A stretch of DNA of 33,259 nt from a virus. The stretch is from positions 1-33,259 of the IMG/VR virus record IMGVR_UViG_3300045988_058170; one strand, written 5' to 3'. A model generated the notes under the pieces. That model saw only the letters and a list, made by a program, of their open reading frames with translations. It was not told the DNA's origin and did no database searches. The translations under genes were made by a program, and so were the position numbers. Of the stretch, positions 11,603 through 33,259 are shown piece by piece (position 1 is the stretch's first letter; each line of letters begins with the position of its first letter).

Positions 11603-13207
11603 ATGGCTGACAGAATCGCAATCCTTGGCGGCGAACCGTATGCCGAGTGGATAGACTGCAGCGGCACACCGCAGTATCTCTTCAAAACATACCGCGACAG
11701 GTGGCCGGACGGCACGGCAGAGTGTGTCGCAATCGGCGATGAATTCTACATCCGAACTCAGGACGGTGAAATGCGCCGCGTCTACGACGACACGGATTTT
11801 GAAGACGAAACCGCATGGTGCGCGCAATGCGGAACACCACTCGCACCAAACAGCGTCCACTATGATTGTGAAGCCTACGGTTGTGACGCAATCCTCTGTG
11901 AAACGTGTGAGGGAACTTCCGAAGGCGATCGCCACTACTGCCCGCGTCACCGCGGTGACGAACTTCTTAGGTCACCAATGGAAGCCGAGTACACCTACCC
12001 GTACGCCTTCGGCGACGGTGACCAGTTCACTTTCGGCGTGGAGATCGAGATGGAATCCGAGCTTGGTTCCGACTTTGCAAAAGACATTGCGGAATCGAAC
12101 CTTATTGCCGGTTGGGACAATGACCAATCGTTGGAGCACAACGGCATCGAACTGCAAAGCAACATTCTCACCATGGCCAATCTCCCAGCCCTACGGGAGC
12201 TTATCAAACACATCCCCGACTACGGTGAGAACGCGGGCGGTCACATCCACGTTGCACGCACCACCAACCAGTGCGCTAGCCGTTGGTATTGGGCGCTGCG
12301 CGGACTGGATGGAGCGCAGTGCGAGCGCCTCAACATGCGCCACCTGTCCGATGATTATTGGTGCGAACTCAAACATGGCGAGTACAGCGGCAAACACACG
12401 GCAGTGAATGACGAACACGTTGACACTATCGAGCTGCGCACGTTCGACTGCTGGTATGCGGGTAGCGCCGATAGGTTTGAACCGGCGGTCAAGTGGATTC
12501 GCGCCATGTGGCGGTTTTTCGAAAAACACCCCCGCGGCACCATTGGCGCGGACACTATCGAGCGGTACGCCGCATGCATGGCCGACAATGTGGTTGACAC
12601 GCCCCGCCTCACCCTTGGGGAGCGGCGTGCGGCAGCGCACCGCGCAGCAGCCGCCCGTAAAGCCGAAGAGGAGCGGGAGCGTAAGGAGCGCGCCAAGGCA
12701 ATCCGCCGCAACGTGGAAGCCAATGTCAGGGCTTCACGTCGTGCGCGTGCAAGCCATGGCGACACGCTCCGTGCACGCCAGTCATGGCTGGACAATCAGC
12801 GTCGACGCGCAATCCGTCGCAAGGGCATCGAGAAGTGTCTCACCGACACCGCATACCCCTACGCTTTTCCGTCTCGCAACCTACAGCCATTGCACATCTA
12901 TCTTAGGTGCGCAACGAAAATGATTGTGGATCATGGCGAGTCGTACCGTAGCTTGGAACGGTTCCGTATCTACCATGCCGCCGGTGGCGAGTCGATATGG
13001 GATGGTTTCGATTATTCGTGTCGCAGCCGCGCTAATGCTCAATGGATTCTTGATAACATTTTGCGCAGCCGCAAGGCGCGCGCCTCCCACGGCAAGCCAA
13101 CCGTGGAATCGCTGGAACGCACCGCATTGCGCCTGTACAAGCGTGCTGGACGCCCCGAACTGTGTGCGCGCTACGCGCAGATTCGCGAGAATATCGCCAA
13201 CGCCTGA
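11603..13207 (+). CDS. Amidoligase_2-family (glutamine-synthetase-fold) enzyme with an N-terminal Cys-rich region and an Arg-rich C-terminal extension
   Basis: Core motifs FGVEIEME...DQSLEHNGIELQS...AGGHIHV...DTIELRTFD match the phage 'putative amidoligase' signature. N-terminus has CAQCGTP..CETCEG..YCPRH. The C-terminal ~200 aa is Arg-rich and helical. Confidence 0.75.
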   Translation: MADRIAILGGEPYAEWIDCSGTPQYLFKTYRDRWPDGTAECVAIGDEFYIRTQDGEMRRVYDDTDFEDETAWCAQCGTPLAPNSVHYDCEAYGCDAILCETCEGTSEGDRHYCPRHRGDELLRSPMEAEYTYPYAFGDGDQFTFGVEIEMESELGSDFAKDIAESNLIAGWDNDQSLEHNGIELQSNILTMANLPALRELIKHIPDYGENAGGHIHVARTTNQCASRWYWALRGLDGAQCERLNMRHLSDDYWCELKHGEYSGKHTAVNDEHVDTIELRTFDCWYAGSADRFEPAVKWIRAMWRFFEKHPRGTIGADTIERYAACMADNVVDTPRLTLGERRAAAHRAAAARKAEEERERKERAKAIRRNVEANVRASRRARASHGDTLRARQSWLDNQRRRAIRRKGIEKCLTDTAYPYAFPSRNLQPLHIYLRCATKMIVDHGESYRSLERFRIYHAAGGESIWDGFDYSCRSRANAQWILDNILRSRKARASHGKPTVESLERTALRLYKRAGRPELCARYAQIRENIANA

Positions 13208-13265: not shown

Positions 13266-13766
13266 ATGTGTGTAATCGTAACCGCAGTGCCCGGCGCAAT
13301 GCCGGAACCCGAAGATATTCTCGCCATGAGTGAGACGAACCCGGACGGTGGCGGGGTCAGTTGGTGGGACAGGGAGCGCCTGAGGGTGTTCAAGAACGTT
13401 GACCCGCTGAAGGTGGTGGGATTCATCTACAGCCATTGGGAGCAGCTCAGGCATGCGCCATGCCTGATTCACTTCCGTCTCGCCACGCATGGCGCGGTCG
13501 AGCCGCGCAACTGTCACCCCTTCAGCACCGATAGGGGGTATATCGCGCATAATGGAATCGCATATGAGTACGAAAACGGGCCATACGCTTCCGACTCTCG
13601 CAACATGATTGAAGCGTGGGTCAACAGCGGATACGATAATAGTGTGTTCGACGGTCAGGGTCTAGTGGCTCTCATCACCCCGCATGGTTGCCTGAAATGG
13701 CTGGAGGGCGAGCCGATTGAATACGCGCGCGGTGTGTGGGTTTCCAATATGTTTTGGAACGTCTGA
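13266..13766 (+). CDS. Class-II (Ntn, Cys2 nucleophile) glutamine amidotransferase-like protein
   Basis: Starts MC (MCVIVTA). Also NPDGGG, CLIHFRLATHGAVEPRNCHPF and YIAHNG. AGAGGAAAA SD. Confidence 0.75.
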   Translation: MCVIVTAVPGAMPEPEDILAMSETNPDGGGVSWWDRERLRVFKNVDPLKVVGFIYSHWEQLRHAPCLIHFRLATHGAVEPRNCHPFSTDRGYIAHNGIAYEYENGPYASDSRNMIEAWVNSGYDNSVFDGQGLVALITPHGCLKWLEGEPIEYARGVWVSNMFWNV

Positions 13767-13837: not shown

Positions 13838-14218
13838 ATGAGTCAGTCAGAATATTTCCGCAATAAGGCTGTGACATATTTGGCTTGCGTATCCGACGTG
13901 GCGCTCAACGCCGGGGTAGACGCGGTAGGCGTCATCGTCGCACTTGATGTCGCACTCCCATACACGCCACGAGACTACATGAACGCACTCACAGCATGGC
14001 TGCAAGGACGATACGACGTATGGCAGAGTCGCATAGACGACTATGAGGCCGACCCAACAGACGAAAAATATGCAACCATAGCCGGACTAGCGCTCAGCGA
14101 ACACACCCCGCACACGCAACAGGATTTCGACGACATCGTGGAAATGGCATATCGCCTCGCAGTAGACGAAACGCTTATCGAAAACGAACTCGAAAAAAGG
14201 AGGAACAATGGCAAATGA
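13838..14218 (+). CDS. Hypothetical acidic protein (126 aa)
   Basis: TGAGGT SD. Asp/Glu-rich C-terminal half. Confidence 0.65.
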   Translation: MSQSEYFRNKAVTYLACVSDVALNAGVDAVGVIVALDVALPYTPRDYMNALTAWLQGRYDVWQSRIDDYEADPTDEKYATIAGLALSEHTPHTQQDFDDIVEMAYRLAVDETLIENELEKRRNNGK

Positions 14219-14681
14219 CAAACGCTATGACGTGCTCAGCAGAATAGCAGCCGTACAACAGTCGGTAGAAGCGGTGAAACGCACCACCGAAGGATATGGC
14301 TACAAGTACGCCACACTGAATGACATTTGGCAGCTGGCCAAGGCAAGCATGATGGAAAACGGCTTAGGCTGGACCGCTGTAAGCGCAAGTGAAATCATCG
14401 GCGCTGACACCGACATGCCCACCGTCTACAACACGCTCACCGTCGCAGTATACGAGGCTGCGCACGAGGGTGAAAACCTCATGGACATGGTGAAGCACGG
14501 TGAGGCGGTAAGCAGCAGCTACACGTATCCGGCAGCAGCCGCGCAACAGGTGGGCAGCTTCGAAACCTACTATAGGCGCTACGGTCTCATCCATCTGCTC
14601 GGCATCACCACCGTAATGGATGATGACGGAAAAGCCACCACCCCCCTCCCCCGCCCGTCCCTCACTGAAGAATTCAACTGA
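14208..14681 (+). CDS. ERF-family single-strand annealing protein
   Basis: GYGYKYATLNDIWQLAKASMMENGLGW...YYRRYGLIHLLGI..DDDG. AAGGAGG SD. Confidence 0.7.
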   Translation: MANDKRYDVLSRIAAVQQSVEAVKRTTEGYGYKYATLNDIWQLAKASMMENGLGWTAVSASEIIGADTDMPTVYNTLTVAVYEAAHEGENLMDMVKHGEAVSSSYTYPAAAAQQVGSFETYYRRYGLIHLLGITTVMDDDGKATTPLPRPSLTEEFN

Positions 14682-14692
14682 AAGGAAAAACA

Positions 14693-15232
14693 ATGGCAAA
14701 CGACATGCTCGAAATCGAAGCTGTAGGCGAAATCCGATTCGTCCACATCAAAGACAAATACCAGTCCGACTCGGCGAAACAGTTTGGAATCGACCCGAGC
14801 TACCAGTTGCAGCTCGCGTTCCCGAAGAACGGTGACGTGCATAAGGAACTCGTGGCGTCCGCGAAACAGTTGGGCGTGCGCGCCAACGGCGACAACCTCC
14901 GCTATAAGGATGGCGATTTAATCACCCTCAAGGACGGAACCCAGCCGCAGCGTGGCAAGTGGCTTATCAACCTCTCATCCAAGTGGAGGCCCAGCATCGT
15001 CGACCAGAACGCCAACGATGTGGAACTGGCCGAAGAACCGGGCGACGGCACGCTCGCCAACGTCGCATTTAAAATCGGCAGCACGAAGGAAGGACGCCTC
15101 ACCTACTTCCTCACCGGCGTGCAACTGCTGCGAATCGAAAAGAACAACACCCCCGCCCCCCACAAGTTCGGCGCATACACGCAGCTGACCATCGAAGACG
15201 AGGGTGCCGGAGAGCCGGAACCGGAATTCTGA
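14693..15232 (+). CDS. Phage ssDNA-binding protein (gp2.5-like / DUF2815-like)
   Basis: OB-like pattern with an acidic C-terminal tail ...IEDEGAGEPEPEF ending in an aromatic residue. Sits between ERF and the nucleases. Confidence 0.6.
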   Translation: MANDMLEIEAVGEIRFVHIKDKYQSDSAKQFGIDPSYQLQLAFPKNGDVHKELVASAKQLGVRANGDNLRYKDGDLITLKDGTQPQRGKWLINLSSKWRPSIVDQNANDVELAEEPGDGTLANVAFKIGSTKEGRLTYFLTGVQLLRIEKNNTPAPHKFGAYTQLTIEDEGAGEPEPEF

Positions 15233-15239
15233 CCCACTC

Positions 15240-15437
15240 ATGAACGCGCCAATCCACTACAGCGACGACACGCTGATTGACGCGCTCACCACCTGCATGA
15301 GTATCAGCCAAGCCGCGAAAGCACTCGGAGTGTCACGCGGCTGGCTGTTCCCACATGCGAAACGGTTGGAGCGCGAAGGCAGAATACTACCAAAAACAAT
15401 CATGCCCGCATATTTCAAACCAAAGGACAACGAATGA
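15240..15437 (+). CDS. Small helix-turn-helix DNA-binding protein
   Basis: MSISQAAKALGVSRGWLFPHAKR is an HTH. The start is uncertain (ATG 15240, weak SD, or GTG 15204). Confidence 0.55.
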   Translation: MNAPIHYSDDTLIDALTTCMSISQAAKALGVSRGWLFPHAKRLEREGRILPKTIMPAYFKPKDNE

Positions 15438-15712
15438 CGAAATTCCTAAACACCCCCCCTGCCAATGTTCGGAAAAGCACCGCATTCAACACGGCAATCA
15501 AAAACAATCTCGGCAAATGGGCGGAATACCACTCCTACAAGAAACGCAACGTCGCGAACGCCACCGCCTACCATGTCCGTAAGCATCTACTCGCATGGAC
15601 GGAACCGCAGGTCGAATACGCCGCGGTGACACGCCGCAAGCCGGATGGCACGTTTGCCGTATGGGTCAGCGCCGTCAGCATCAAGGAGAACACCAATGCC
15701 GAAACTGAATAA
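15434..15712 (+). CDS. Hypothetical protein (92 aa)
   Basis: ATGA coupling with the upstream ORF. Confidence 0.55.
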   Translation: MTKFLNTPPANVRKSTAFNTAIKNNLGKWAEYHSYKKRNVANATAYHVRKHLLAWTEPQVEYAAVTRRKPDGTFAVWVSAVSIKENTNAETE

Positions 15713-16079
15713 CCAAAGACAGGAACCATTGGAGTCAGCCATCCAAAACCGTCTCATCAAAATCTTGGAACAGCAAGGATGGTACGTGCAGAAAACCGAA
15801 GGACGCTCACGCAACGGATTTCCCGACGTGACCGCCGTAGACCAGCTCGGAAACGTATGGTTCATAGAACTGAAACGCACGGTAGGCAAGCCAAGCCCCG
15901 ACCAATGCCGCGAACTCAAAATGCTCGCCGAGCATAACGCCAACGTCATGCTCCTATATGGCAAGAAGGCCATAGACACCATACTGTTGTACAAAAACTG
16001 GGTGGACATGACGAACGTCTACCACGACATCCTCATCGTAGACTCGGAAGGAAAAATGAGATGGACGAAAGAAATCTGA
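15696..16079 (+). CDS. VRR-NUC domain nuclease (PD-(D/E)xK)
   Basis: GFPDVTAV...VWFIELKRTVGKPSPDQ. AAGGAG lies 7 nt before ATG 15696. Confidence 0.7.
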   Translation: MPKLNNQRQEPLESAIQNRLIKILEQQGWYVQKTEGRSRNGFPDVTAVDQLGNVWFIELKRTVGKPSPDQCRELKMLAEHNANVMLLYGKKAIDTILLYKNWVDMTNVYHDILIVDSEGKMRWTKEI

Positions 16080-16966
16080 CATACCGAATCTTCGAAGACC
16101 GTGAAACATGGCTCGAAGCACGCGAGGAGACCATAGGCGCGTCCAGTCTCGCGCATTTCATCGCCACCGGACAGCTCCCAACACCCCCGCCTGACGTTCC
16201 AGCAGTGCAGTCGGCATTGCAGTTCGGCAGCATTTGGGAACCCATGCTCGTCAAACTGTATGCAGAACATCTCCAACTGGCCGTAGTCGGCAAGAACACT
16301 CCCGTCAATGAGTTGGAAAACGGACAGCTCGCATGGTACGACAACAGCTTCTACACGAACGGACGGCTGCACGTCTCCTTGGACGCAGTCTACCGCGACC
16401 ATGATGGAATTGTGCACACCGTCGAAGTGAAAACCGGAAGCAAACCATCCTACGCATTCCTCGCCACGGAACAGCGCAGACAGTATTCAACCCAAGCGCA
16501 GATAGAAGCCCGCATGATGGGCACGGAGCGTGCGGAAATCATCTACGCGCAGCGCCCCCCGTCATGGGAAACGATGAACGCCGAATACATCACCGAACGA
16601 ATCAAGGAAACGCTCGACATCGTAATCATTCCAGACGTGATGGATGCGAGCGAACTGGAACGGTATGCGACCGAATACGAGCGCGCGGCACAGCCAACGG
16701 ATAATGACGGACAACGACTGTTGGCCGAACTGTTGGAAGCGAAAGACCAGTACGAGACGTTGAAAGAGCGGCTCTCCGCATGGCTGGAAGAACACCCCGG
16801 CGAGCGCGTCGCATGCTCCGGACATGTCGCAAGACTGGCGGAAACCACGCGCACCACCACCGACTACAAGGCGTACTTCGGCCAGCACCCAGCAGACCTG
16901 ACCCCATTCCAGAAAACATCGACAACCACTCGACTCAGCGTAGTAAAGGAGAAGAAAAATGCATGA
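16061..16966 (+). CDS. YqaJ / lambda-Exo-like recombination exonuclease
   Basis: IGASSLAHFI...GSIWEPMLVKLY...SLDAVYRD...VHTVEVKTG. Partner of the ERF gene. Confidence 0.7.
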   Translation: MDERNLTYRIFEDRETWLEAREETIGASSLAHFIATGQLPTPPPDVPAVQSALQFGSIWEPMLVKLYAEHLQLAVVGKNTPVNELENGQLAWYDNSFYTNGRLHVSLDAVYRDHDGIVHTVEVKTGSKPSYAFLATEQRRQYSTQAQIEARMMGTERAEIIYAQRPPSWETMNAEYITERIKETLDIVIIPDVMDASELERYATEYERAAQPTDNDGQRLLAELLEAKDQYETLKERLSAWLEEHPGERVACSGHVARLAETTRTTTDYKAYFGQHPADLTPFQKTSTTTRLSVVKEKKNA

Positions 16967-20912: not shown

Positions 20913-21839
20913 CTAACGGCACATTGTCAAATACCATTCGCTGCCGGACTCGGTGCCGATGGCGACATACCTCGGCTCGCCCGAAGAAGCGCCCATATAA
21001 CGGCCCCACAGGAAACCGTCAGCATAAGCACCCCAACCATCCAGCACGACCTTCTGGCCGCGCACATAATCGGCCACAACATTGCCTTTCACGGACGGTT
21101 CGGTACGCACGTTCAGCGAATCCACCGACACCTCATACGTGGTCGCAATCACAGTCGGAGACGGGGAAACCACCGGCACCGGAGCCGGATTCACCGGAGT
21201 GTTAGCGCCCACACCAGCATACTTGTCCCAAGCGGCCTTGTCGCCAGCGAAATAGTTCAAGTCAAGCGACCCAGCATAACCACCAATATGACCGTTAGAC
21301 GTGTACTGGCGCATCGGATACGCCACGTAAGACCAAATCGAATCGGCATCCTGCCAGCCGACCGCATCCATGGACGCATAGCATGCTTCCCAAATGCCGC
21401 AATCATGCTTGCCGCAGATATCCTTGATGAACGGAAGTTCGGAACGCTGCGCATACACGAGCGGCTTCACACCAGTCAGACGAATATACTGGTACAGAAA
21501 CTCGTCCAAGTAGGCGCGATTGCCCCACGCGGCGTTATCGTCACTCTCCCAGTCGACGCACGGCACGAACTTGCCAAGATAACCCTTGGTGGCTTCCGCG
21601 AAGAAATACGCCTCCTCGGAAGCGTTCACGCCACGAATGTAATGCATGTAGCCGACCGCAAGACCACGGGCCGCAGCAGCCTGAATCTTCGCATCGGCAC
21701 CAACCCACACGGAATCGACCAGACCATTATCAGTCGTTAATTCGCCGGCACCCCAAGTGCACTGGACCACGACGCCATCCGTGTCAATCTTGGAAACGTC
21801 GCAATCGGCCTTCCAATTGCTGATATCCACAAACCTCAT
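20913..21839 (-). CDS. Endolysin: GH25 muramidase plus a C-terminal SH3b-like wall-binding domain
   Basis: MRFVDISNWK...GVVVQCTWG...LAVGYMHYIRG...DWESDD...LDLNYF (GH25). A Pro-rich linker, then SLNVRTEPSVKGNVVADYVRGQKVVLDGW..GFLWGRY. Confidence 0.85.
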   Translation of the reverse strand: MRFVDISNWKADCDVSKIDTDGVVVQCTWGAGELTTDNGLVDSVWVGADAKIQAAAARGLAVGYMHYIRGVNASEEAYFFAEATKGYLGKFVPCVDWESDDNAAWGNRAYLDEFLYQYIRLTGVKPLVYAQRSELPFIKDICGKHDCGIWEACYASMDAVGWQDADSIWSYVAYPMRQYTSNGHIGGYAGSLDLNYFAGDKAAWDKYAGVGANTPVNPAPVPVVSPSPTVIATTYEVSVDSLNVRTEPSVKGNVVADYVRGQKVVLDGWGAYADGFLWGRYMGASSGEPRYVAIGTESGSEWYLTMCR

Positions 21840-22108
21840 TATTCAGAAACCTCCTTAATATGCTTGCCGGTAACCTTCGCCTTTTCAGACATTGCGAAAG
21901 ACGCCGGACTGATTGAATCCGTCTTGCCGCTCGACGCGACGCACGTCAGCACGCTTGCGATGGCGGCGACCAAGGCGATGCCGCCGACATTCGTCCAATC
22001 CACGTCGAACAGGCCGACGCCACCGACCACGCCAGCCGACAATGCCGCCTGACATGCGGTGCGGATTGCACGCTCAAGCGTGTCAACCCAAAAATCCTTA
22101 GTGAACAA
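21839..22108 (-). CDS. Holin (r1t / LL-H-like)
   Basis: FWVDTLERAIRTACQAALSAGVVGG...GGIALVAAIASVLTCV. Its stop overlaps the lysin start. Confidence 0.7.
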   Translation of the reverse strand: MFTKDFWVDTLERAIRTACQAALSAGVVGGVGLFDVDWTNVGGIALVAAIASVLTCVASSGKTDSISPASFAMSEKAKVTGKHIKEVSE

Positions 22109-22481
22109 TATTCTGCTCCTTACTGTTGTCGTCTTTCAACGGTTCTATTGTACCTCGAAGCTCGTCAGGAAGCCGTGGCTTCGGATACCGTTCCAAAAAC
22201 TCCGGGTCGAGCACATAGCAGAGTTCGCTCAGCCAATGCCCGATGGCCCGAATGTACGAGGTTTTTAAATCGTCCTGATAGCGGAGCTTGTCGCGCTCGC
22301 TGACGAATTCGGCCAGCTTCTCATCCTGACGGTCGATTTCCCGCTGCATGTTCAACTGTGCTTCTGACAGTTGGCGATAGGCTTCGGACAGGTTGGTCTT
22401 GTTGTTTTGCATCCATGTGACGAGTGCGACGATGATGGCGCAGATGCCGGTGATGAACGCTACGGTGACTTCAGTGCTCAT
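22098..22481 (-). CDS. N-terminal TM plus coiled-coil protein (lysis- or tail-associated, unknown)
   Basis: VAFITGICAIIVALVTW followed by a charged helical region. No SD, so the mRNA may be leaderless. Confidence 0.6.
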   Translation of the reverse strand: MSTEVTVAFITGICAIIVALVTWMQNNKTNLSEAYRQLSEAQLNMQREIDRQDEKLAEFVSERDKLRYQDDLKTSYIRAIGHWLSELCYVLDPEFLERYPKPRLPDELRGTIEPLKDDNSKEQNIVH

Positions 22482-22489: not shown

Positions 22490-22518
22490 ATTCTAGCCGA
22501 TAATTGCGATTATGTCAG
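22490..22518 (-). promoter_or_regulatory. Candidate promoter with its -35 inside IR-L, giving a (near-)leaderless transcript for 22481
   Basis: Minus strand reads CTGACA (22518-22513), 17 nt, TAGAAT (22495-22490). The ATG follows 8 nt after the -10 and there is no SD. Confidence 0.35.
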
Positions 22519-22520
22519 AA
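22496..22520. repeat. IR-L: 25-bp perfect inverted repeat partner of 23202-23226
   Basis: gccgataattgcgattatgtcagaa is the exact reverse complement of 23202-23226. It has an internal dyad ATAAT-tgcg-ATTAT. Confidence 0.97.
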
Positions 22521-22855
22521 AAGGCGATGGGTGGCGTGGATGGAACATGCCATGGCGTGACATTCATCTCAACAATAATACCGCGAACATGTGGGCTTCC
22601 AATGGTACCGCGCACATCCACGTTCAGACCAGTGATATCAACCTGACCGGTTGGGGTTCGTATGTGACCGTCGCGTATGTGAACAACAGCGCCTTCCATC
22701 CAGCCGCCCCACAGGGCATCAATGCGGGTACGGGAAATGGATATTTTCCGACGTTTTTGGGCGTCTACTCCGATGGAAACGTGAAAATCGGATACGCTGG
22801 CGGTCAGACTGGGAATCGTTCCGTATTGTCCGTTCTCACCTACGATATCGGTTAG
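22496..22855 (+). CDS. Silent alternative C-terminal cassette for the receptor-binding protein (promoterless, no start codon)
   Basis: A TAG stop (22493-22495) sits immediately before IR-L. From IR-L (ADNCDYVR) the plus frame stays open for 119 codons: KGDGWRGWNMPWRDIHLNNNTANMWASNGTAHIHVQTSD...VLTYDIG*. It converges tail-to-tail on the current C-terminus. Confidence 0.6.
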   Translation, partial: ADNCDYVRKGDGWRGWNMPWRDIHLNNNTANMWASNGTAHIHVQTSDINLTGWGSYVTVAYVNNSAFHPAAPQGINAGTGNGYFPTFLGVYSDGNVKIGYAGGQTGNRSVLSVLTYDIG

Positions 22856-23201
22856 GCTCTCCACTCCCTACACTGCCATCCTCCGGTTATGCCGGAGTAT
22901 ACGGCATTGGTGTTGCCGAGCATGATGATGTGACCGTCCGGCTTCACGAAATTGCACCAGTTGGCGTTGACGGAACCTATGGTACCGTAGGAGATGGCGG
23001 CAGGGTTGTCTCCGTAGGGTCGCCATCCGACTGGAATGCTTTCGTTCGCCGTAGCATGGTTCTGCTGGTTCGACGCAGCGTAATGTACGCTGCCGGATAC
23101 GATGACCGTATCCCATTCGCGGGAAAGCTGCGCCTTATCGGTGGTGAACGGTATGCTGACGCCGATGGTGTCTCTCGTCTTGGCCCACTTGCCGCTTGGA
23201 G
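22521..23201. mobile_element. Putative invertible DNA segment (681 bp) between IR-L and IR-R
   Basis: It is bounded by the 25-bp perfect inverted repeats and contains two convergent C-terminal coding cassettes, an architecture like the Mu G / P1 C segments or shufflons. Confidence 0.6.
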
Positions 23202-23817
23202 TTCTGACATAATCGCAATTATCGGCCACATTATGCAACAGCGTTCCATCTGGCACCGTGGTCAGAGCGTCACGCTGCGCGGAAGTTTGCACACGCAGCA
23301 TGTCACCCTTCAACGCGGCACCGATATACGTCTGCGTGATGACCACGCCGCCAGCGGCAGTATTCGACACGCCAGCCGGAAGCAACACCTGCGCCAAAGC
23401 CAAAGCGCCATCCGGAACGTCAGGAGCCACAGGCGTTGCGGCGGCCACACCCTTCACAACGCCGAAAATCGGATTGTCCGAACTGTCCGACATTGGGGAG
23501 CGCGTCTCGTTCTGCTTCACATACACCACGTCGATACGCGAATTAGCGGACGGGGCTGCGGACAATGGCACGTTCGCATTGCCATCATTCTGTAACAACA
23601 ACGCGCCGTAACGGTTCAACACCGCATTGAACGGGTGCACCGTCACGCTCATGGAATTGCTGTTGCCCGTCACAAGATTGTCCTGCGAACGGTCAAGAAT
23701 GCCCGGGATGGGCATCATCGTCGTATTGTCGCAGACGAAAAGCCCGCTCATGTCGCGGCGCGCATCCAAAAACGACGCCTTGCCGGACACTGCGAACAGA
23801 CTATTTCTCAACGCCAT
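22852..23817 (-). CDS. Receptor-binding / distal tail protein (321 aa): constant N-terminus plus exchangeable C-terminus
   Basis: ATG 23817 with a GGAAGGAAAG SD. IR-R lies in frame (VADNCDYVRT) after 197 codons. The current C-terminal cassette is 116 aa. Confidence 0.7.
   Translation of the reverse strand: MALRNSLFAVSGKASFLDARRDMSGLFVCDNTTMMPIPGILDRSQDNLVTGNSNSMSVTVHPFNAVLNRYGALLLQNDGNANVPLSAAPSANSRIDVVYVKQNETRSPMSDSSDNPIFGVVKGVAAATPVAPDVPDGALALAQVLLPAGVSNTAAGGVVITQTYIGAALKGDMLRVQTSAQRDALTTVPDGTLLHNVADNCDYVRTPSGKWAKTRDTIGVSIPFTTDKAQLSREWDTVIVSGSVHYAASNQQNHATANESIPVGWRPYGDNPAAISYGTIGSVNANWCNFVKPDGHIIMLGNTNAVYSGITGGWQCREWRA
23202..23226. repeat. IR-R: 25-bp perfect inverted repeat partner of 22496-22520
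   Basis: ttctgacataatcgcaattatcggc, read directly. Confidence 0.97.
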
Positions 23818-24559
23818 TATCAATCTTTCCTTCCAACGCTTTCAAACGTTCCTCAAGCCGGTCGATACGGTCATGGGCGAGATGGGCCTCATGTATGGCC
23901 CACACGCCCAGCATCGGATAGTTGATGCCGCACGGCTCATAATCGTCATTATACTCGACGAACTGCCCCAAACCGTTATCGTCCAGTTCTTCGGCAATCA
24001 TGCCCAAATGGACCGTCGCACTGTCCCCGTTCAGATTCACGTCATCGATGTAACGGTAGAGCGTCCAATCCACGGCACGCATCTGCTCCAACGTGATTTC
24101 CGGCATAATGAAATCCTGCTTCACCTTGCGGCTGGACTGGGCGGTACCCAGCGTACCGTCGGACAATGCCCATACGGCACGCCACGAGCCGGTTGAAAAC
24201 AGGTTATTGAACGCGTTCGTCGTATTCGTGCCGCCACGTCCCGGAGGCAATACACCCCAATTCCAAGCATTGCACTTCTGGTCGATGGTCGCACGGTCAT
24301 ACGAATTGCGGTTGATGGACGACGTTACGGTCTGGTCGATGTTTTCGCTGATATCCAATACTCGCTGAATCGCCTGAGTCAACTGCGAGCCGGACGGCTT
24401 TTCCAATTCGCGCAGGCGTCGGCCATACTCGTTCAACGTGCTTACGAGCTTGTTGGTCGCCTGAGCCGGATTCTTCACGTCAAGAACGTTTTCCTCCGCA
24501 TCATCGACCAATGGCGCGCCATCCGCCTGCTCGCCTTGATGCACTACGATTTCCATCAT
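23801..24559 (-). CDS. Tail fibre/spike protein with a C-terminal intramolecular-chaperone (peptidase S74-like) autoproteolytic domain
   Basis: ...LGTAQSSRKVKQDFIMPE... resembles the S-x-R-x-K cleavage motif, followed by MRAVDWTLYRY...HLGMIAEEL...INYPMLGVWAIHEAH and a coiled coil. Start is ATG 24559 (ATGA overlap). Confidence 0.6.
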   Translation of the reverse strand: MMEIVVHQGEQADGAPLVDDAEENVLDVKNPAQATNKLVSTLNEYGRRLRELEKPSGSQLTQAIQRVLDISENIDQTVTSSINRNSYDRATIDQKCNAWNWGVLPPGRGGTNTTNAFNNLFSTGSWRAVWALSDGTLGTAQSSRKVKQDFIMPEITLEQMRAVDWTLYRYIDDVNLNGDSATVHLGMIAEELDDNGLGQFVEYNDDYEPCGINYPMLGVWAIHEAHLAHDRIDRLEERLKALEGKIDNGVEK

Positions 24560-25737
24560 TCCACCGTCACTTTCACACCGTCGAACACGTCTCCCAACGT
24601 GAACGTAATCCAATTCGAGCTTTCATCGGCTTTGATGCCGGTGATGCGCCTCGTATGCGCGCCATCCGTATAATACCAGTCGCCCTTCGTCGTGAACCTG
24701 ATATAATCGCCGACCGTATAGTTGGCGAGCGTCTGGTTCACGGAATGCAAATATCCACGATGCACTTTCGCCTCCGTTGACGATACGGGTTGCCAGTAGA
24801 CCGCTGCGGCCTCGTTCGCATACGCCTGCAACGTGTTTTGCAGTTTCACGGTCGAATGGCTGGAATCCACGCTCTCCCAGATTGGCGCTCCAGCCTTATC
24901 CAGAATATCCGTATATGCGGATACTACGAGCGTCTTGTCATCCGACTTTCCGGACGTGAACCATTGCAGTGAGGCGAGCTTGTCGCCATCATCCGTGGCG
25001 GACAGTGATGCGATGCCCGGCTGCATGGCTGACGCGCTGAAATAGTGCGTTTCCCCACCCAACAATGGGTGGCCGGTCTTCATATGCCACTCATAGCCCA
25101 ATCCGTCAGCCGTGCGCGTTGGGAAGAATCCGATATCGCAGCCGTTCTGATAGTTCGTGATGTTCGTCAGCACTTCGCCCACATAGTTGAGGTCTACGGC
25201 CTGATAGTTCGCTTCCGACGTGCCTACCTCCGCAGCCTCCAACACGACGGGCACATTGCTGTTTGGCCAGCTCATGGCCTGTTCGACGAGATTGCGTGCG
25301 ACCGTGTTCCATGTGACATTCCTGTACGACGTGTCGTATTGAGTGTCAGGCGAACCATCCGACTTGATGAGGCTTTTCCCTTTCGCTTTCGCCGGTAGAA
25401 TCGTCCTATGGTCAAAATACGTCCACATGCCCGACGCAACCAGTGTGAGGATGCCCGTGTCGGCGTCATATTCGCGGCGCATGAGCACGCCGCCGACCAT
25501 AAGCCCATCATCTTCGGCAACCATGACGGTTTTGCCGATGGCCGCAGTGTTCCTTAAATCCAACAACCGCGCATCGTTTGCGATGTATTGGACGCGCGTA
25601 TCGTCGGACGAAGCATAGATTGGCACTTTGACGGTCAGCGAATCCGTGTCGTTCAGTTTCATCTCCCATTCCGCCGACGTGTGCGGCAGGGGGATGATGC
25701 GGCGTCCGGTCAGTAGGTCTGCAAGATAGATTTTCAC
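24556..25737 (-). CDS. Tail-associated (Tal / baseplate hub, gp27-like N-domain) protein
   Basis: Position after Dit. Start is GTG 25737 (GTGA overlap, GGAGG 7 nt upstream). Sequence KIYLADLLTGRRI..PLP.TSAEWEMKLNDTDSLTVKVP. Confidence 0.6.
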   Translation of the reverse strand: MKIYLADLLTGRRIIPLPHTSAEWEMKLNDTDSLTVKVPIYASSDDTRVQYIANDARLLDLRNTAAIGKTVMVAEDDGLMVGGVLMRREYDADTGILTLVASGMWTYFDHRTILPAKAKGKSLIKSDGSPDTQYDTSYRNVTWNTVARNLVEQAMSWPNSNVPVVLEAAEVGTSEANYQAVDLNYVGEVLTNITNYQNGCDIGFFPTRTADGLGYEWHMKTGHPLLGGETHYFSASAMQPGIASLSATDDGDKLASLQWFTSGKSDDKTLVVSAYTDILDKAGAPIWESVDSSHSTVKLQNTLQAYANEAAAVYWQPVSSTEAKVHRGYLHSVNQTLANYTVGDYIRFTTKGDWYYTDGAHTRRITGIKADESSNWITFTLGDVFDGVKVTVE

Positions 25738-26567
25738 CGCCAAGCCTCCTTCCATTCGACCGTCATCGATGGCGTGCCCGACTGCACGCCCAACGGGGTG
25801 AACTGTATCGTCGCATCGCCGGAAGGACGGAACCAGTTCTCCTCGGTGAGGAACATGCTCAAATCCGACTGGTTTTGGAACAGGACGCGCTCATCGTCGA
25901 AGTCGAACACCATCGTCTCGTCCGGGTTGATTTGACGGTGGAATTCGATGGCTTCGCCGGTTTCGATGCAGTGGATGCGCACGCCTTCCGACAATCCGCC
26001 ACGGATTTTCACGACAAGATGCGTTGGCGCGAAACCGCTGCCGGTGATGGCGACACGTCCCGGATTGCCTACCTCGCCTTCCGACAACGGGTCAAGCAAC
26101 GGGTCGGTAATGCCCTCGCCGTCTGTAGGCACGCCGACCGTCTGCGAGCGCAACGGCCCATACAGGTAGGGGGACGGGGCTAGCAGGCCAATCTGGAATG
26201 CGGCCTTGCCGCGATACCGGTATTCGTCCACGGTCATCGACCTGAGTTCCGCGTCACAGGACAATGCGACGCCAGCACCCTTCTGCACGGTGACGGTGAC
26301 CAAGCGTCCGGCCATGCCGCGCAGACGGCGCATCATATCATCCGTATCCTCGACCGTACTGGTCGCATAGTAGCCGTTGACGGTGATGGTGCGCCCATCA
26401 TAGTATGTGGTGCCGGGAATGGCGTTGCCGTCAGCCCTAGCCCAAGAATCCTGTTCGGTCTTGGCTGACGGCAAATCGTCGAAACCGCTCATGGACACCA
26501 ATGTGAACTCGTGTCCGGCATCGCCGTAAAGCGTGATGTCACCCACGGTGACGGTTATCGTGCTCAA
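25734..26567 (-). CDS. Distal tail protein (Dit, siphovirus tail component)
   Basis: Sits immediately after the tape measure (ATGA overlap). 277 aa. Confidence 0.6.
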   Translation of the reverse strand: MSTITVTVGDITLYGDAGHEFTLVSMSGFDDLPSAKTEQDSWARADGNAIPGTTYYDGRTITVNGYYATSTVEDTDDMMRRLRGMAGRLVTVTVQKGAGVALSCDAELRSMTVDEYRYRGKAAFQIGLLAPSPYLYGPLRSQTVGVPTDGEGITDPLLDPLSEGEVGNPGRVAITGSGFAPTHLVVKIRGGLSEGVRIHCIETGEAIEFHRQINPDETMVFDFDDERVLFQNQSDLSMFLTEENWFRPSGDATIQFTPLGVQSGTPSMTVEWKEAWR

Positions 26568-29500
26568 GGTCTGACACTTCCAATCATCTCATTGTTCAAA
26601 GCGTATCCGAATCGTCGGGCCACCAGTTCCACGTCGCTCAACGGGCTTGCCACCACATTGTCGATGTGGACGCCGCCAGCATACCGCTGGTCGCTAGCCG
26701 ACACCATTCCAGTATAGTCTTTAAGCTGCGGAGCAGACACCATGCCGAGATTGGCGGCGTCAATCTGGTCGAAATCCAAGGAGCTGAGCACATCATCGAC
26801 CTGACCGCGCACGAACGCGCCCTGAGCGCCGATGGCCTTGCCGAAGTCGCGCATAAGATGCTCGCCCGACACAGACGTGTAGCCGGAACCGGAGAACGGG
26901 CCGACCTTAGCGGGAGAGAACGGGAAGAAGTCTCGAACCTTCTGCAACGCGCCCTTCACCGCGCTTTTCACGTTTTCGACCGCACCGAGAATGCCATCCT
27001 TGAAACCGTTCATCAACGCCGCGCCGGAGTTCAGCAGCCATGAGCCGGCTCCGGAGAACAATCCCATGATGCGGCTTGGAATGTCGCTGATTTGGCTGAG
27101 AATCCTACCTCCCAATCCGGCGAACGCGCGTGCGATGTTCGCGATAATCGCAGGAATCGCGCTCACGACGGCCATGAAGATGCTTGGGAAGTTCGCCGCA
27201 ATACTGGTCACCACGCTGACGAAAGCATTCAACAGCATGGGTAGTCCGTTGATAATGCCGGTCACCAAGCCGCCGATGATGGCGGGCAGCTGGTTGATGA
27301 TGGCGACGGCGATGCCCGGCAATGCTGCGGCCAATGAGGTTATCACGCTGGTGATGGCAGACATCAACGCGGGAATCAGCGTAGGCAATGCGGTGGCGAT
27401 GCTCTGTCCGATGGATGGGAGCGCGGCAACTACGGTGGCACCTAACGTTTGGATGCCAGAAGCCAAGGATGCGCCGAACCCGCTGATAAAACCGGCGATT
27501 GCGCCGCTATTGTCTCCGATTGCGGAGAACGCGACCTGAATGCCTGTTATCAACGCCTGACCGAGCGAGGTCATGAGCGACGGAATCTGTCCAGCCATCG
27601 TGGCGAACAGCGTGCCGAACGTTTCCAACATCGGCTGACCATACGTGCTGATGAACGCGGGCAGCTGTGCGAACATGCTGGAGAACGCCTGCGTGATTTG
27701 CGGCAGTATTGCGGTCAACGCCGGTCCGAGCGTCTGTCCAACGCTCACGAGTGCGTTGGCGATGCCGGGAAGCGCCGTGGTAACGCTGGAAACCATCTGC
27801 GGGAGGGCTGCGGCGAACGCGCTCGCCATGGCCGGCAGTTTCGTCTGCACGCCTTCCAACGCATTGTCAAGACTCGACTGCCATTCCTCGAACTTGCCGG
27901 CCATCTGGCTCGGGTCGAGCTTGAACAATGTCTGAAATCCGGTGGTCAGGCCGGTGAACAATGCGCCGGTCACACCCAAGGATGAGGCGATGCTGCCAAT
28001 CTTGCCGATTGCCGCGCCACATCCTCTCACTGCCGCGCCGAATCCCTTCAACGCGCCGGAAGACACTTTCAACGCCGCGGAGCCGATGGCCGAGAATGCC
28101 ACCTTTCCAGCGGACGCCAGCGGGGCGAACCGTCCGATAAGACGGGTTACGGCACCACCCAACGTGGCTGACAATCCTGCACCGACCGTCTTCGCGGCGG
28201 ATGTCAACGGGGTGAACGGATTCTGTCCCTTGAACGAGCCGAAAATCTTTTCCGGAATACCACGGAACGGAATCGACAACGTGGACGCCGCTTCCGACCC
28301 GAACGATCTGAGCCCGCCCTTGACTGAGGAGAGCCCGTTGCTTACCGCCGACCCGAGCTTGGACATGGTGCTGCCGATGCCGGTCGAATCCAGCATTTCA
28401 CTGAACGCGGTTTTAAATTCAGCCGCCTTGCCCTTCACGTTCTCGACCATGGTGAGCACGCCGGACTCCACGTCGGCTCGAAGGACTTCCATCTTCGTCT
28501 TGGCCGCTGCGGACGCGCTGGAGAAGATTTCGGTGAAAATCTCCTTGACCGGTGCCCACTGCTGTGCGGTGTTGGCTGCATAGTTGGACAATCCGGCCTT
28601 CAGATTGCCGAACGTCTGCATGATGCTGTCGGACGCGGACACAGCCGAGCCGACCAATGGGAGGAACACGTTCGGAATGTTGAGGCCGGTAAGCTCATTG
28701 AATTCGCGGCCAACCTGCACGAGCTTGTCACGGTAAATGTCGGCGCTCTGTCCGGCAGTGTCCAGCGAATGGTAGATATCCGAATCCACTACGATGGTGT
28801 CGGCGGCGGCGCGAATGTCACGGAACGCTTGGATGAGGGTTGGAGCCTTCTTTCGTGCGGCGACATCCACTTCGGTGCTGAGGGTTTCGAACGCCTTGAG
28901 GAACGTTTCTGGAAGCGCGTCAACGTCGGGACCCATCATGTTCAAGCCGTTTTGGAGCAGCTTCACATTGTCGGACACGTTGCCGACGCCGTTCCACAGG
29001 TTCACCGCGGCCTGTTCGACGAGGCCGAAGCCTTCCGCGCCCTTCTGCCCGAAGCTGAACGCGCATGAACCCAAGTCTTCGAACGCGACATTGAATTTGC
29101 CGAGCGCGTTCTGCACCCTCGTCGATTCAGCTAATGTTTTCGACATTGCGTCGGCCATGGATGCGAGCTTGTCGATTGCCGCGGACGATGCGGACACTGC
29201 CGCGCCGAACACGCTGGTGAAGCTGGAGCCGAGTTTGATGAGCGTGTTCTTTACGCCGACCAGTGCGGTACCGATGAACGGGATACGGGAGGCGAACCGG
29301 TCGTTCGTGGCGACCATGAGTGAGAATACGGTGGTGCCAATGACACCTACCGTGTTCAGAATGTCACCCAAGGAGGTTAGGAGGTTGGCGTTCTGCGAGT
29401 TCGCGCTGATAAGGTTCGTCAACGGGGCGAGGAACTGTTCGACCTGCTGTGCGTTGAATGCCTTGTTGACGGCCGGTGCCAGCTGGTTAATGAACGTTGC

Positions 29501-30583
29501 GGCCAGTGTGGAGGCCGCGTTCGTCAATGGTACGAATCCTGCGAGCATTTCGCCGAACGTGTCCACCATGCCCGAATTGGAGATGGCGGCCAGCGTCTTG
29601 CCGATGTTGGCCGACAATGCGGTGGCCGCTTCCGCAGACCTTACGCCGACCGTGTTTTTGATGCTGTTCCATGCGCGGTCCGCCGTGACGGGCATGGTGG
29701 AGAACTGCTTTTCGATGGCGACTGCGTTTTCCAGTACCGTATCGTACAGGTCTTGGCCGCTGATTTCGCCTTCCTTGCCGAGCTGTTTCAGTTCGCCTAC
29801 GGAAACGTTGAGATGCTTGGCGAGCATTCGTGCGATTTGCGGCGCGTTCTCCATGATGGAGTTCAACTCGTCGCCGTTGACGATACCCTTGCCCAAAGCT
29901 TGAGTAATCTGACGCATGGCGCTGGACGCTTCCTGCGTGGACGCGCCCGTGCTGACCATGTTCATGTCGAGCAGTTTCGTGAACTTCGCGGCATCGCTGT
30001 AGTTGGTTACGACTTCCGGTGCGAGCGTGCGCAGTCGTGCGGCGGACTGGATGAAATCGTCTGTGGTGACGCCGACCTTGTTCGCATATTCCAGCGACGC
30101 CTCAAGAGAGTCCTTATAGTCCCCAGAGGTGCCTACCGCGTTTTTCAGCATGGCGGTGGTCTGCCCCCACTGGTTGCCCATCTCGACAATGTTGGACGTG
30201 ACGTTTTTGACGGCCTTGCCAACCGATACGACTGCGGCGATGGCTGCTGCGGCGTTCAAATACTTGTTGAGGTCGAGGTTCGCGAAGCTGTTTCCGAAAG
30301 CGTTGGCCGAACGCTGCCCACCAGCAGTGAAGGAGGCGAACACGCTGTTGAGCGCGCCTTTCACGCCTCCTTGCAGGTTGAGGTTCTTGTTGAACGAGCC
30401 GGAGAAAAGTTTCGACATGCCCAAGCCGTTCGACGTGAAGAGGCGGCTTGTGCCTGACGCCAGTTTAGGTTGGATGGCGGGGGTGAGCACCGCGCCCTTG
30501 CTTGCCTTGACAAGTGCGGACTGCAAGCCTTCCAACGATGGGAGTACCTGAATCCATGCGGTCGCAATGCTACCCTTTGCCAT
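26564..30583 (-). CDS. Tape measure protein (1339 aa)
   Basis: Largest ORF, directly after G/GT. Ala/Gly/Ser-rich helical repeats and hydrophobic glycine-zipper stretches. No lytic domain recognised. Confidence 0.9.
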   Translation of the reverse strand: MAKGSIATAWIQVLPSLEGLQSALVKASKGAVLTPAIQPKLASGTSRLFTSNGLGMSKLFSGSFNKNLNLQGGVKGALNSVFASFTAGGQRSANAFGNSFANLDLNKYLNAAAAIAAVVSVGKAVKNVTSNIVEMGNQWGQTTAMLKNAVGTSGDYKDSLEASLEYANKVGVTTDDFIQSAARLRTLAPEVVTNYSDAAKFTKLLDMNMVSTGASTQEASSAMRQITQALGKGIVNGDELNSIMENAPQIARMLAKHLNVSVGELKQLGKEGEISGQDLYDTVLENAVAIEKQFSTMPVTADRAWNSIKNTVGVRSAEAATALSANIGKTLAAISNSGMVDTFGEMLAGFVPLTNAASTLAATFINQLAPAVNKAFNAQQVEQFLAPLTNLISANSQNANLLTSLGDILNTVGVIGTTVFSLMVATNDRFASRIPFIGTALVGVKNTLIKLGSSFTSVFGAAVSASSAAIDKLASMADAMSKTLAESTRVQNALGKFNVAFEDLGSCAFSFGQKGAEGFGLVEQAAVNLWNGVGNVSDNVKLLQNGLNMMGPDVDALPETFLKAFETLSTEVDVAARKKAPTLIQAFRDIRAAADTIVVDSDIYHSLDTAGQSADIYRDKLVQVGREFNELTGLNIPNVFLPLVGSAVSASDSIMQTFGNLKAGLSNYAANTAQQWAPVKEIFTEIFSSASAAAKTKMEVLRADVESGVLTMVENVKGKAAEFKTAFSEMLDSTGIGSTMSKLGSAVSNGLSSVKGGLRSFGSEAASTLSIPFRGIPEKIFGSFKGQNPFTPLTSAAKTVGAGLSATLGGAVTRLIGRFAPLASAGKVAFSAIGSAALKVSSGALKGFGAAVRGCGAAIGKIGSIASSLGVTGALFTGLTTGFQTLFKLDPSQMAGKFEEWQSSLDNALEGVQTKLPAMASAFAAALPQMVSSVTTALPGIANALVSVGQTLGPALTAILPQITQAFSSMFAQLPAFISTYGQPMLETFGTLFATMAGQIPSLMTSLGQALITGIQVAFSAIGDNSGAIAGFISGFGASLASGIQTLGATVVAALPSIGQSIATALPTLIPALMSAITSVITSLAAALPGIAVAIINQLPAIIGGLVTGIINGLPMLLNAFVSVVTSIAANFPSIFMAVVSAIPAIIANIARAFAGLGGRILSQISDIPSRIMGLFSGAGSWLLNSGAALMNGFKDGILGAVENVKSAVKGALQKVRDFFPFSPAKVGPFSGSGYTSVSGEHLMRDFGKAIGAQGAFVRGQVDDVLSSLDFDQIDAANLGMVSAPQLKDYTGMVSASDQRYAGGVHIDNVVASPLSDVELVARRFGYALNNEMIGSVRP

Positions 30584-32643: not shown

Positions 32644-33259
32644 TCAGTCGGCGTTGTGGGTGATGGCGTAGAACTTGCTGGTTCCGCCGATGAAGCCCCA
32701 GCCGATTGCGACTTCGGTGCGGAGCATCACCTTGTTCATTGCGCCCAAGTCGCCTTCGGCGGAACTGTCCGGATTGCCGGAGTCGAACACTTCGATGCCG
32801 GACAGCGGGATGGCACCCCACACAAAACGGTTGGCGAAGTCACCAACCACGGCATCGAGCACCTTGCTCTCCAACTGGCCGGAGCCGGTTGCCGCAGCAG
32901 TGTCGGACACGGTGTTGGAGGCCGCGAGGGTGACGCCGCCGAGGTTGACCATGTTGCCGATGAGCGGAACGTCGGAAGCATACTGGGTCGGCGTGCCGAT
33001 GGTGGTGAGGCCGTCGCCGATGGCAGCCAAGTAGGCGGAGGTGGTGACGCCCTGCGCGGAAGCGTCGCCCTGTGCGGCGACCTGTCGCACGGCCTGCTTG
33101 AACGCGGTGGCGGCTTCTGCTCCGGTGCCCGGAGTGTAGTTGATGTCGCCCGCATGTTCGAGCACGTAGCCGTTGGTGCGTGCGACGGTGGATGCGGCCT
33201 TGGTGGCCGGGTTGATGCCGAAGATGGGGGCGAAGTCGAGGGCGCGGCTGATAGCACGG
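32644..33259 (-). CDS. Major capsid protein, C-terminal part (continues from 527->1 across the junction)
   Basis: ...GDLGAMNKVMLRTEVAIGWGFIGGTSKFYAITHNAD* ; stop at 32644-32646. The track's M at 33165 is an internal GTG (Val). Confidence 0.85.
   Translation of the reverse strand, partial: RAISRALDFAPIFGINPATKAASTVARTNGYVLEHAGDINYTPGTGAEAATAFKQAVRQVAAQGDASAQGVTTSAYLAAIGDGLTTIGTPTQYASDVPLIGNMVNLGGVTLAASNTVSDTAAATGSGQLESKVLDAVVGDFANRFVWGAIPLSGIEVFDSGNPDSSAEGDLGAMNKVMLRTEVAIGWGFIGGTSKFYAITHNAD
33161..33259. repeat. Terminal direct repeat, second copy (identical to 1-99)
   Basis: Read directly. Confidence 0.95.

Follow-up and report, generated by a model that had tools for sequence, protein, structure and literature searches.

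The stretch of viral DNA analysed here, IMG/VR record IMGVR_UViG_3300045988_058170 (33,259 nt in full, referred to below as the window), carries a receptor-binding protein (RBP) gene whose C-terminal part lies within a 681-bp segment (22521–23201) that holds two cassettes, tail to tail, and is bounded by inverted copies of one short sequence. We found that this sequence appears, by alignment, to be a mimic of the chromosomal dif site of Bifidobacterium, and that both orientations of the segment occur in related phages. The host recombinases XerC and XerD probably invert the segment. With slightly more reserve, we consider it likely that virulent gut phages without a recombinase outsource RBP inversion to the dimer-resolution enzymes of the host, by means of in-frame dif mimics with a private centre. 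The original prediction, drawn from the window alone, was of an invertible switch of the RBP C-terminus, and it is upheld by the two orientations found in relatives, by selection on silent cassettes, and by head-like folds modelled for both cassettes. The proposal that the switch is driven in trans was likewise sustained. Since the repeat is a near-copy of host dif, the housekeeping XerC/XerD pair is indicated, and not a Rin/Hin-type invertase of a co-resident prophage.

The RBP Locus and Its dif-Like Sites

A perfect 25-bp repeat, GCCGATAATTGCGATTATGTCAGAA, occurs exactly twice in the window, at 22496–22520 on the plus strand and at 23202–23226 on the minus strand, as had been noted. Dinucleotide-preserving shuffles gave no match to it, and together with its flanks the repeat extends over 32 nt at 91% identity. 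The right copy lies in frame within the RBP gene (22852–23817, minus strand; 321 aa from its ATG), where it codes for the peptide ADNCDYVR after a constant N-terminal part of 197 codons (23227–23817, minus strand). The protein as now expressed combines this constant part with cassette A (TPSGKWAKTRD...CREWRA, 116 aa after ADNCDYVR plus a stop codon; 22852–23201, minus strand). The left copy codes for the same ADNCDYVR on the plus strand and leads into an open frame of 111 codons, the silent cassette B (KGDGWRGWNMPW...TYDIG, 111 aa after ADNCDYVR plus a stop codon; 22521–22855, plus strand). The stop codons of the two cassettes overlap, the TAG of cassette B occupying 22853–22855 and the TAA of cassette A occupying 22852–22854 on the minus strand, and upon inversion the constant N-terminus joins the alternative C-termini in frame. 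The in-frame position of the right copy, the 116-aa C-terminus, the 111-codon frame behind the left copy, and the abutting stops had all been read correctly from the window. The exception was a TAG (22494–22496) taken as the stop directly preceding the left copy: it does not lie in frame, and the frame is closed upstream by a TGA at 22466–22468. The TAG belongs instead to CTAGCCGATAA, an outer sequence of XerC-arm type that matches the arm TTAGCCGATAA of host dif. The RBP itself matches PHROG 3398/35449 (virion or minor tail protein), and a protein search returned 897 homologues.

The records nearest to the window are cultured Bifidobacterium phages from sewage, including BP742P1 and BP677P1–P8 (host B. 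pseudocatenulatum), which are 90–92% identical to the window across the region, as well as BA720P3 and BA746P1 (host B. adolescentis). The Bifidobacterium dif site reads GCCGATAA-TGTACG-TTATGTCAGAT or, in a longer form, (T/A)(T/A)AGCCGATAA-TGTACG-TTATGTCAGAT. Predicted dif sequences are GCCGATAATGTACGTTATGTCAGATTTC for B. adolescentis ATCC 15703 (Kono 2011, PMC3025954, Additional file 2) and GCCGATAATGTACGTTATGTCAGATTAG for B. longum, TCCGATAATGTACGTTATGTCAGATTAG for B. animalis and B. infantis, CACGCCGATAATGCACATTATGTCAAGT for Frankia alni, and GGTGCGCATAATGTATATTATGTTAAAT for E. coli (Kono 2011, PMC3025954). At least 120 human-gut contigs, the longest of 825 kb (median G+C 57.7%), carry the host dif 24-mer CCGATAATGTACGTTATGTCAGAT as a single copy, and genes near it code for proteins identical to those of B. 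adolescentis, B. longum, and B. bifidum.

When parsed as a Xer site, the phage repeat reads GCCGATAA-TTGCGA-TTATGTCAGAA. It agrees with Bifidobacterium dif at 8/8 positions of the inner XerC arm and at 10/11 positions of the XerD arm (18/19 together), with a spacing of exactly 6 bp, while its centre, TTGCGA, differs from the TGTACG of dif at five of the six positions. Over the full XerC arm, the left site (CTAGCCGATAA) matches the host (TTAGCCGATAA) at 10/11 positions. The inner dyad, GATAA-TTGCGA-TTATG, is present; the internal dyad ATAAT-tgcg-ATTAT, earlier suggested to be a recombinase core, coincides with the ATAA-N6-TTAT core of a dif site. Arm matches in the window are confined to these two sites, which have 0 mismatches, the next best having 4. 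The left dif-like site (28 bp, CTAGCCGATAA-TTGCGA-TTATGTCAGAA; 22493–22520, plus strand) is non-coding and consists of an XerC-type arm on the side of the lysis genes (22493–22503), the centre (22504–22509), and an XerD-type arm on the cassette side (22510–22520). The right site (28 bp, GTGGCCGATAA-TTGCGA-TTATGTCAGAA; 23202–23229, minus strand), in frame in the RBP gene, consists of an XerD-type arm (23202–23212), the centre (23213–23218), and an XerC-type arm (23219–23229).

Several other loci lie at or near dif-like sites. On chromosomal contigs of B. longum and B. bifidum (L353, 4002–4767; L386, 4799–5498; L352; L381), an open reading frame (ORF) of ~200 aa, named "integrase", lies 70–90 bp from dif and could be a remnant of a dif-integrated element or a dif-linked factor. 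On a 43-kb stretch that IMG/VR lists as "viral" within an isolate genome, two tyrosine-integrase-like genes flank a host-type dif-like site with the TGTACG centre (L172, 1331–5135); this may be an integrative element that adjoins dif. An inovirus-like element of 4.2 kb, framed by directly repeated dif-like sites (L140, 1–4584; Rep, Zot-like ATPase, membrane proteins), looked like a Bifidobacterium integrative mobile element exploiting Xer (IMEX), and was set aside, since its Rep is found in Peptoniphilus-type Firmicutes and the element is thus uninformative on Bifidobacterium Xer.

Inversion among Relatives and Constraint on Cassettes and Sites

Seventy classifiable relatives were obtained from IMG/VR by a scan with the 25-mer and an unbiased scan with the RBP constant part. 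Their cassettes are of three main types, A (TPSGKWAK...CREWRA, 124 aa including the linker), B (KG.KWRGWNMPW...Y(D/N)IG, 119 aa), and C (KDGKWKFEGLF..., 126 aa), with a fourth type of 122 aa also present. Nine genomes with two intact cassettes express A and keep B silent, and nine have the reverse arrangement; B is expressed and C silent in five, and the reverse is true in another five. In two genomes with two cassettes, the type of the second is uncertain. One cassette accompanied by a degenerate second repeat and a cassette stump was found in 20 genomes, and a single cassette only in 15. Orientations are thus equally common (A/B 9:9, B/C 5:5), and they are scattered over the constant-region tree. 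Opposite orientations were observed in the sister pairs L040/L048 (2.2% divergence), L039/L044, L052/L056, and window/L031. The 33.5-kb contig L241 matches the window at 92–93% in its flanks, while the segment aligns in reverse between breakpoints that fall exactly at the repeats. In L040/L048, an XerD-arm variant, TTAC, moves together with cassette B. Comparison of the relatives thus shows that the segment has flipped repeatedly in evolution.

For the protein that a flipped window should encode (constant part plus B), real counterparts of 316 aa exist at 95–97% identity, which is as near as the closest A-type relatives come (96%). These full-length flipped proteins were found with the predicted constant+B chimera as the query. 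Cassette B alone, used as a protein query, returned no full-length flipped protein, only 102-aa products of the silent ORF and two truncated constant+B fragments (189 and 132 aa).

In BA720P3, a B-type cassette is expressed and a degenerate left repeat is found downstream with the first 5 and last ~10 codons of cassette A; this arrangement reads as a fossil of the flipped state. The locked genomes BA720P3 (L002, 3182–3286), L038, L065, L075, L077, and L033 all combine a degenerate left repeat (e.g., CCCGATGGTTGAGATTATGCTGGAA) with the remnant of a lost cassette (its first 5 and last ~10 codons), and the switch seems to have been lost by internal deletion combined with mutation of the ATAA core. 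Two cassettes are kept in 30 genomes, and about half of the relatives have lost the second.

Silent A, B, and C cassettes keep their full length, except in L022/L052, where a frameshift lies near the end of silent C. The ratio of nonsynonymous to synonymous divergence (dN/dS) for cassette A was 0.29 between silent copies and 0.24 between expressed copies; the corresponding values for cassette B were 0.34 and 0.33, and the RBP constant part gave 0.135. Synonymous divergence (dS) across these comparisons was 0.6–0.8. The plus-strand cassette of the window thus belongs to a type that is conserved as protein when silent (0.34, not near 1), as the original prediction required, and purifying selection on silent cassettes is the same as on expressed ones (dN/dS ~0.3).

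Structures of both cassettes were modelled with AlphaFold. Cassette A (residues 170–321) was predicted as an all-beta domain, with predicted local distance difference test (pLDDT) values of 70–90, and cassette B also as all-beta, with a core pLDDT of 73–84; the N-terminal 170 residues of the RBP gave no confident model. The best PDB matches of cassette A were the RBP heads of phages TP901-1 and p2 (Foldseek probability 1.0, E = 7e-3), and those of cassette B were TP901-1, bIL170, and the adenovirus fibre head (probability 0.8–0.9, E ~0.1). While the scores are weak in absolute terms, the top matches are consistent, and both cassettes model as TP901-1-type RBP heads.

The DNA of the linker was then considered apart from the peptide that it encodes. 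The linker codons are mostly minor ones (GAT 27%, AAT 23%, TAT 39%, AGA 5% of Arg codons), a choice that for this peptide has a probability of 3e-5 under the codon usage of the genome. In two-cassette genomes, third-position diversity over the eight linker codons was 0.139, compared to 0.278 in the constant region, with 5/190 windows lower; in one-cassette genomes it was unremarkable, the constraint being relaxed there. Of the two-cassette genomes, 26/30 have an intact core dyad, ATAA..TTAT, but of the locked ones only 12/35 (Fisher p = 1.8e-5; the test is somewhat inflated by kinship among the genomes), and typical steps of decay are ATAA to ATGG and TTGCGA to TTGAGA. The centres of the two sites agree in 27/30 two-cassette genomes of the window's family, and L241 has CTGCGA at both. 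The linker is thus constrained as DNA, beyond the peptide.

A scan for CCGATAA-N6-TTATGTCA revealed a second group, gut phages of ~30 kb (L245–L320; e.g., L245, 2501–4700, and L267, L274, L292, and L309), whose only cultured relatives are the same Bifidobacterium phages. These genomes have a different constant part (...GTPDSNINGLV...DGQEAVTM), the linker ADNAHYVR, at least 10 cassette types, and inverted pairs of dif-like sites; both orientations occur. The arms of the sites are conserved, while the centres vary (TGCCCA, TGCTCA, TGTCCA, TGCGCA, TGCCCC, and others). Within a genome, the centres are identical in 14/20 two-cassette genomes, compared to 4.1 expected (P < 1e-4). Conserved arms combined with an overlap region that is free to vary as long as it is matched within the pair are the pattern that a tyrosine-recombinase site predicts. 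At least two large groups of phages associated with Bifidobacterium thus apparently share the dif-mimic design. In some pairs of the second group, the sites are separated by 1.25–1.4 kb, which would leave room for an additional gene within the segment.

Host XerC/XerD as the Probable Engine of Inversion, and Alternatives

According to the mechanism that we propose, the locus would be a two-state reversible host-range switch, in which the constant N-terminus is joined at the eight-codon linker ADNCDYVR to one of two unrelated receptor-binding heads, and the second head would be stored downstream in reverse, preceded by another copy of this linker. As DNA, the linker would functionally mimic dif, its 11-bp XerC-type arm lying outside, its 11-bp XerD-type arm facing the cassette, and a 6-bp centre separating the two. 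Host XerC/XerD, for which binding and cutting of the phage sites may be expected from the arm sequences, would synapse the two sites and exchange strands in the centre. Because the sites are inverted relative to each other, recombination would flip the 681-bp segment, 22521–23201, and head A would be replaced by head B in frame. Since strand exchange needs matching centres, the private TTGCGA would permit recombination of one phage site with the other, and not with chromosomal dif; this is consistent with there being no integrated copies in species-representative genomes. The phage would need no invertase gene, the enzyme being present in every potential host. One-strand exchange at cer-type sites leaves a Holliday junction (PMC5357621), and a junction left in this way by Xer could be resolved by the VRR-NUC nuclease of the phage.

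No recombinase had been recognised in the genome, and this holds at the sensitivity of profile searches. The Pfam search, run on 37 chosen ORFs and then on the other 72 ORFs of at least 100 aa as a batch, gave no match to a recombinase, integrase, or transposase in the 100 ORFs of at least 100 aa and the 10 shorter called genes (45–97 aa) scanned, and a PHROGs search of 20 selected ORFs likewise gave no recombinase. Among the ORFs searched in Pfam and PHROGs, no resolvase/invertase-family gene lies beside the segment.

A number of observations weigh against Xer as the engine. In E. coli, XerD acts at chromosomal dif only when activated by septum-located FtsK, and the phage searches detected no activator of the XafT kind. 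The dif sites compared are those of B. adolescentis, B. longum, and B. bifidum, that of B. pseudocatenulatum not having been identified by name. The orientation data come from consensus assemblies only. The exact RBP of the window is present on six contigs, and the three that were retrieved (ERZ19662177, ERZ772839, ERR589544) are 100% identical over 4.7–7 kb around the RBP gene; though from different samples, they have the same orientation and were assembled through the repeat. Switching is thus not fast enough to scramble assemblies, and the minority orientation must be rare or counter-selected in the samples of identical clones. The matching of the two site copies could come from gene conversion, too. 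A position-3 variant of the XerC-type arm adjoins cassette B on either flank in 5/6 cases, a pattern that is not predicted by a clean crossover in the central region, although the association is not significant. Finally, the phage's own Erf/exonuclease/VRR-NUC system is a credible alternative engine for rare inversions.

Polymorphisms in the repeats do not locate the crossover: XerD-arm variants follow the cassette as expected, and XerC-arm variants are too rare to inform. Five of 75 contigs (L030, L034, L043, L051, L057) end 14–86 nt past the right repeat, while ~0.3 would be expected, and the assemblies may have broken off there because orientations or cassettes were mixed in the samples concerned.

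Of the other explanations, homologous recombination survives best, though we consider it unlikely. Here, phage Erf and the RecE/YqaJ-like exonuclease, or host RecA, would recombine the 25–32-bp repeats, and the likeness to dif would be irrelevant. The phage does encode Erf, an SSB-like protein, a RecE/YqaJ-like exonuclease, and VRR-NUC, the two site copies of a genome co-vary as they would under gene conversion, and the stable consensus orientation in identical clones fits a rare event. Such recombination leaves unexplained, however, the identity to dif arms at an exact 6-bp spacing, the retention of minor codons, the combination of the same arms with different centres in the second group, and the loss of the ATAA/TTAT core that tracks loss of the switch. 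Moreover, the repeat has not been lengthened in any lineage, and 25 bp is near the lower limit for efficient homology-driven exchange.

It is improbable that an unrecognised enzyme encoded by the phage itself drives the inversion, or that Xer is activated outside the septum by a phage protein, in the manner of XafT in the Vibrio satellite phage TLC. Several phage ORFs have no detectable family, one candidate being the 537-aa ORF at 11594–13207, and FtsK-independent Xer reactions elsewhere use element-encoded or accessory factors (PMC9226527, PMC5357621). There is, however, positive evidence for no candidate, while the sites themselves point to Xer, and a phage cofactor would complement the XerC/XerD explanation, not replace it.

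A dedicated invertase of the Rin, Hin, or Mpi type, which the host or a co-resident prophage would provide in trans to act on the repeat, with the dif likeness incidental, has very little probability in our estimate. Global invertases that act in trans exist, and one was proposed for an orphan tail locus of bifidoprophages (Mavrich 2018, PMC6109161); that no recombinase was detected in the phage agrees with such a source. The phage site, however, shares nothing with the Rin rix site TTCCCTAACCC, which is absent from the window even with one mismatch, or with the 8-bp site CAGGGTTA, also absent from the window. A search of host genomes for the site, envisaged with the original prediction, came out negative: the 20-mer core GAYRRTTGCGATTAYRTCAG was found in no Bifidobacterium genome among 185,579 species-representative genomes, so that no host locus in the Bifidobacterium representatives uses the same site beside an invertase. 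Elsewhere, the core gave 27 single matches in unrelated taxa, ~17 being expected, which is chance level. Dependence on such an enzyme would also make a switch that changes hosts hang on an accessory gene that varies between strains, and the match to dif is far beyond chance.

It is just as hard to credit that there is no programmed switch, the locus being a relic whose orientations arose from rare accidents and module exchange between co-infecting phages at the conserved linker: the loss of the second cassette in half of the relatives, the various combinations of several cassette types, and the stable orientation in identical clones would fit, but silent cassettes keep exact length and an expressed-like dN/dS over dS of ~0.6–0.8, the two orientations are equally frequent and scattered over the tree, and DNA-level constraint on the site is confined to genomes that still have two cassettes.

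Genome Context and Related Systems

The window is a circularly permuted genome of 33,160 bp (G+C 57%). An exact direct repeat of 99 bp, at 1–99 and 33161–33259, forms a terminal overlap and identifies the window as a circular assembly, so that the closed 33.16-kb genome assumed at the outset was correct. Around the RBP gene, the minus strand encodes a tape measure protein (26564–30583), Dit (25734–26567), a minor tail protein (24556–25755), and a protein with an endosialidase-chaperone domain (23801–24613); on the other side of the segment lie a membrane protein (22098–22481), a holin (21839–22108), and a GH25 lysin (20913–21839), all on the minus strand as well. Elsewhere on this strand are the genes for the large terminase (1144–2592), an HNH endonuclease (858–1151), and a primase-helicase (7066–9501). 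A scaffold-like protein (5958–6446) and a Gp19-type adaptor (5352–5786) were also identified, while no portal or major capsid protein is recognisable anywhere in the genome by Pfam or PHROGs. A scan of the window for tRNA genes found none.

The homologous-recombination module (14208–16966, plus strand) consists of the Erf annealing protein (14208–14681), the SSB-like protein (14693–15232), the VRR-NUC/Holliday-junction-resolvase-like nuclease (15645–16079; Pfam PF08774, PHROG 93/5702), and the RecE/YqaJ-like exonuclease (16061–16966), the assignments of the Erf, SSB-like, and exonuclease genes being by Pfam/PHROGs. The plus-strand block that holds Erf also contains SNF2 and dCTP deaminase genes. 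The 537-aa ORF (11594–13207, plus strand) has a good coding signal and is without a match in Pfam or PHROGs. The early/replication block also encodes a 166-aa protein that has a class-II glutamine amidotransferase-like domain (13266–13766, plus strand), unusual for a small siphophage.

A direct parallel to the sites is found in the pdif (pXerC/D) modules of Acinetobacter (Cameranesi 2018, PMC5790767; PMC9947245), where inverted 28-bp sites (11 + 6 + 11 bp) flank a module, active pairs have an identical 6-bp spacer, and chromosomal XerC/XerD are the inferred enzymes. On Acinetobacter plasmids, reversible inversion between oppositely oriented pXerC/D sites that have the same spacer was verified by polymerase chain reaction (Giacone 2023, PMC9947245). 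In the phages, too, an oppositely oriented site pair bounds a discrete segment that is found in both orientations. The Acinetobacter modules, however, belong to proteobacterial Rep_3-type plasmids and consist of whole resistance or toxin-antitoxin genes, while here the carrier is a 33-kb tailed virulent actinobacterial phage, the sites are inside coding sequence, as an eight-codon in-frame linker, and a protein domain is swapped.

In the Mu G, P1 C, and p15B Min segments, as in the present locus, short inverted repeats allow a constant tail-fibre N-terminus to be connected in frame, through inversion, to one or another receptor-binding C-terminus, with alternation of host range. Those systems have an adjacent serine invertase (Gin, Cin, Min), gix/cix sites, and a Fis-dependent enhancer; here, by contrast, no invertase gene was detected, and the site is of the tyrosine-recombinase dif type. 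The Rin shufflon of bifidoprophages and the second, orphan inverted tail locus described with it are also found in Bifidobacterium siphophages and involve RBP C-terminal cassettes with TP901-1-like heads and a reaction of the tyrosine-recombinase type (Mavrich 2018, PMC6109161). The Rin shufflon has its own armless tyrosine invertase gene (rin) and 11-bp rix sites (TTCCCTAACCC), while the orphan locus has the 8-bp CAGGGTTA and no adjacent recombinase, so that an enzyme acting in trans was proposed. These prophages are temperate, whereas the window phage is without an integrase, and the study draws no link to dif or Xer. Since that orphan locus was already described (PMC6109161), the orphan status of the present one is, as such, not new. 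With IMEX such as CTXphi, VGJphi, and TLCphi, the window phage shares dif-like sites and the apparent reliance on host XerC/XerD instead of a recombinase of its own. An IMEX, however, has one site, integrates into chromosomal dif, and has a centre at least partly compatible with dif, while here there are two inverted sites with a private centre, intramolecular inversion, a tailed virulent phage, and no integrated copies in genome representatives.

Invertible tail-fibre cassettes, and the exploitation of Xer by filamentous phages and plasmids, are thus already known. A full-text search of the literature found no report tying Xer/dif to the inversion of a phage receptor-binding gene. If the proposed mechanism is true, this would be the first host-range switch of a tailed phage run by a housekeeping host recombinase. 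It would explain phase variation in a 33-kb virulent phage without an invertase gene, as well as how the switch could work in any host, Xer being nearly universal, and the private centre would explain how capture by chromosomal dif is avoided. Xer exploitation would then extend past IMEX integration and pdif plasmid shuffling to the in-frame swapping of protein domains, and the dif-mimic design may be a general solution for "orphan" invertible phage segments. It also provides a sequence rule, inverted pairs of host-dif-like sites, by which recombinase-less invertible loci can be sought in viromes, and the locus is a natural scaffold for engineered RBP swaps. In human gut data the family is abundant: RBP homologues number in the hundreds, and two cassettes are present in about half of the genomes. 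The switch probably shapes the range of Bifidobacterium strains or species that these phages infect.

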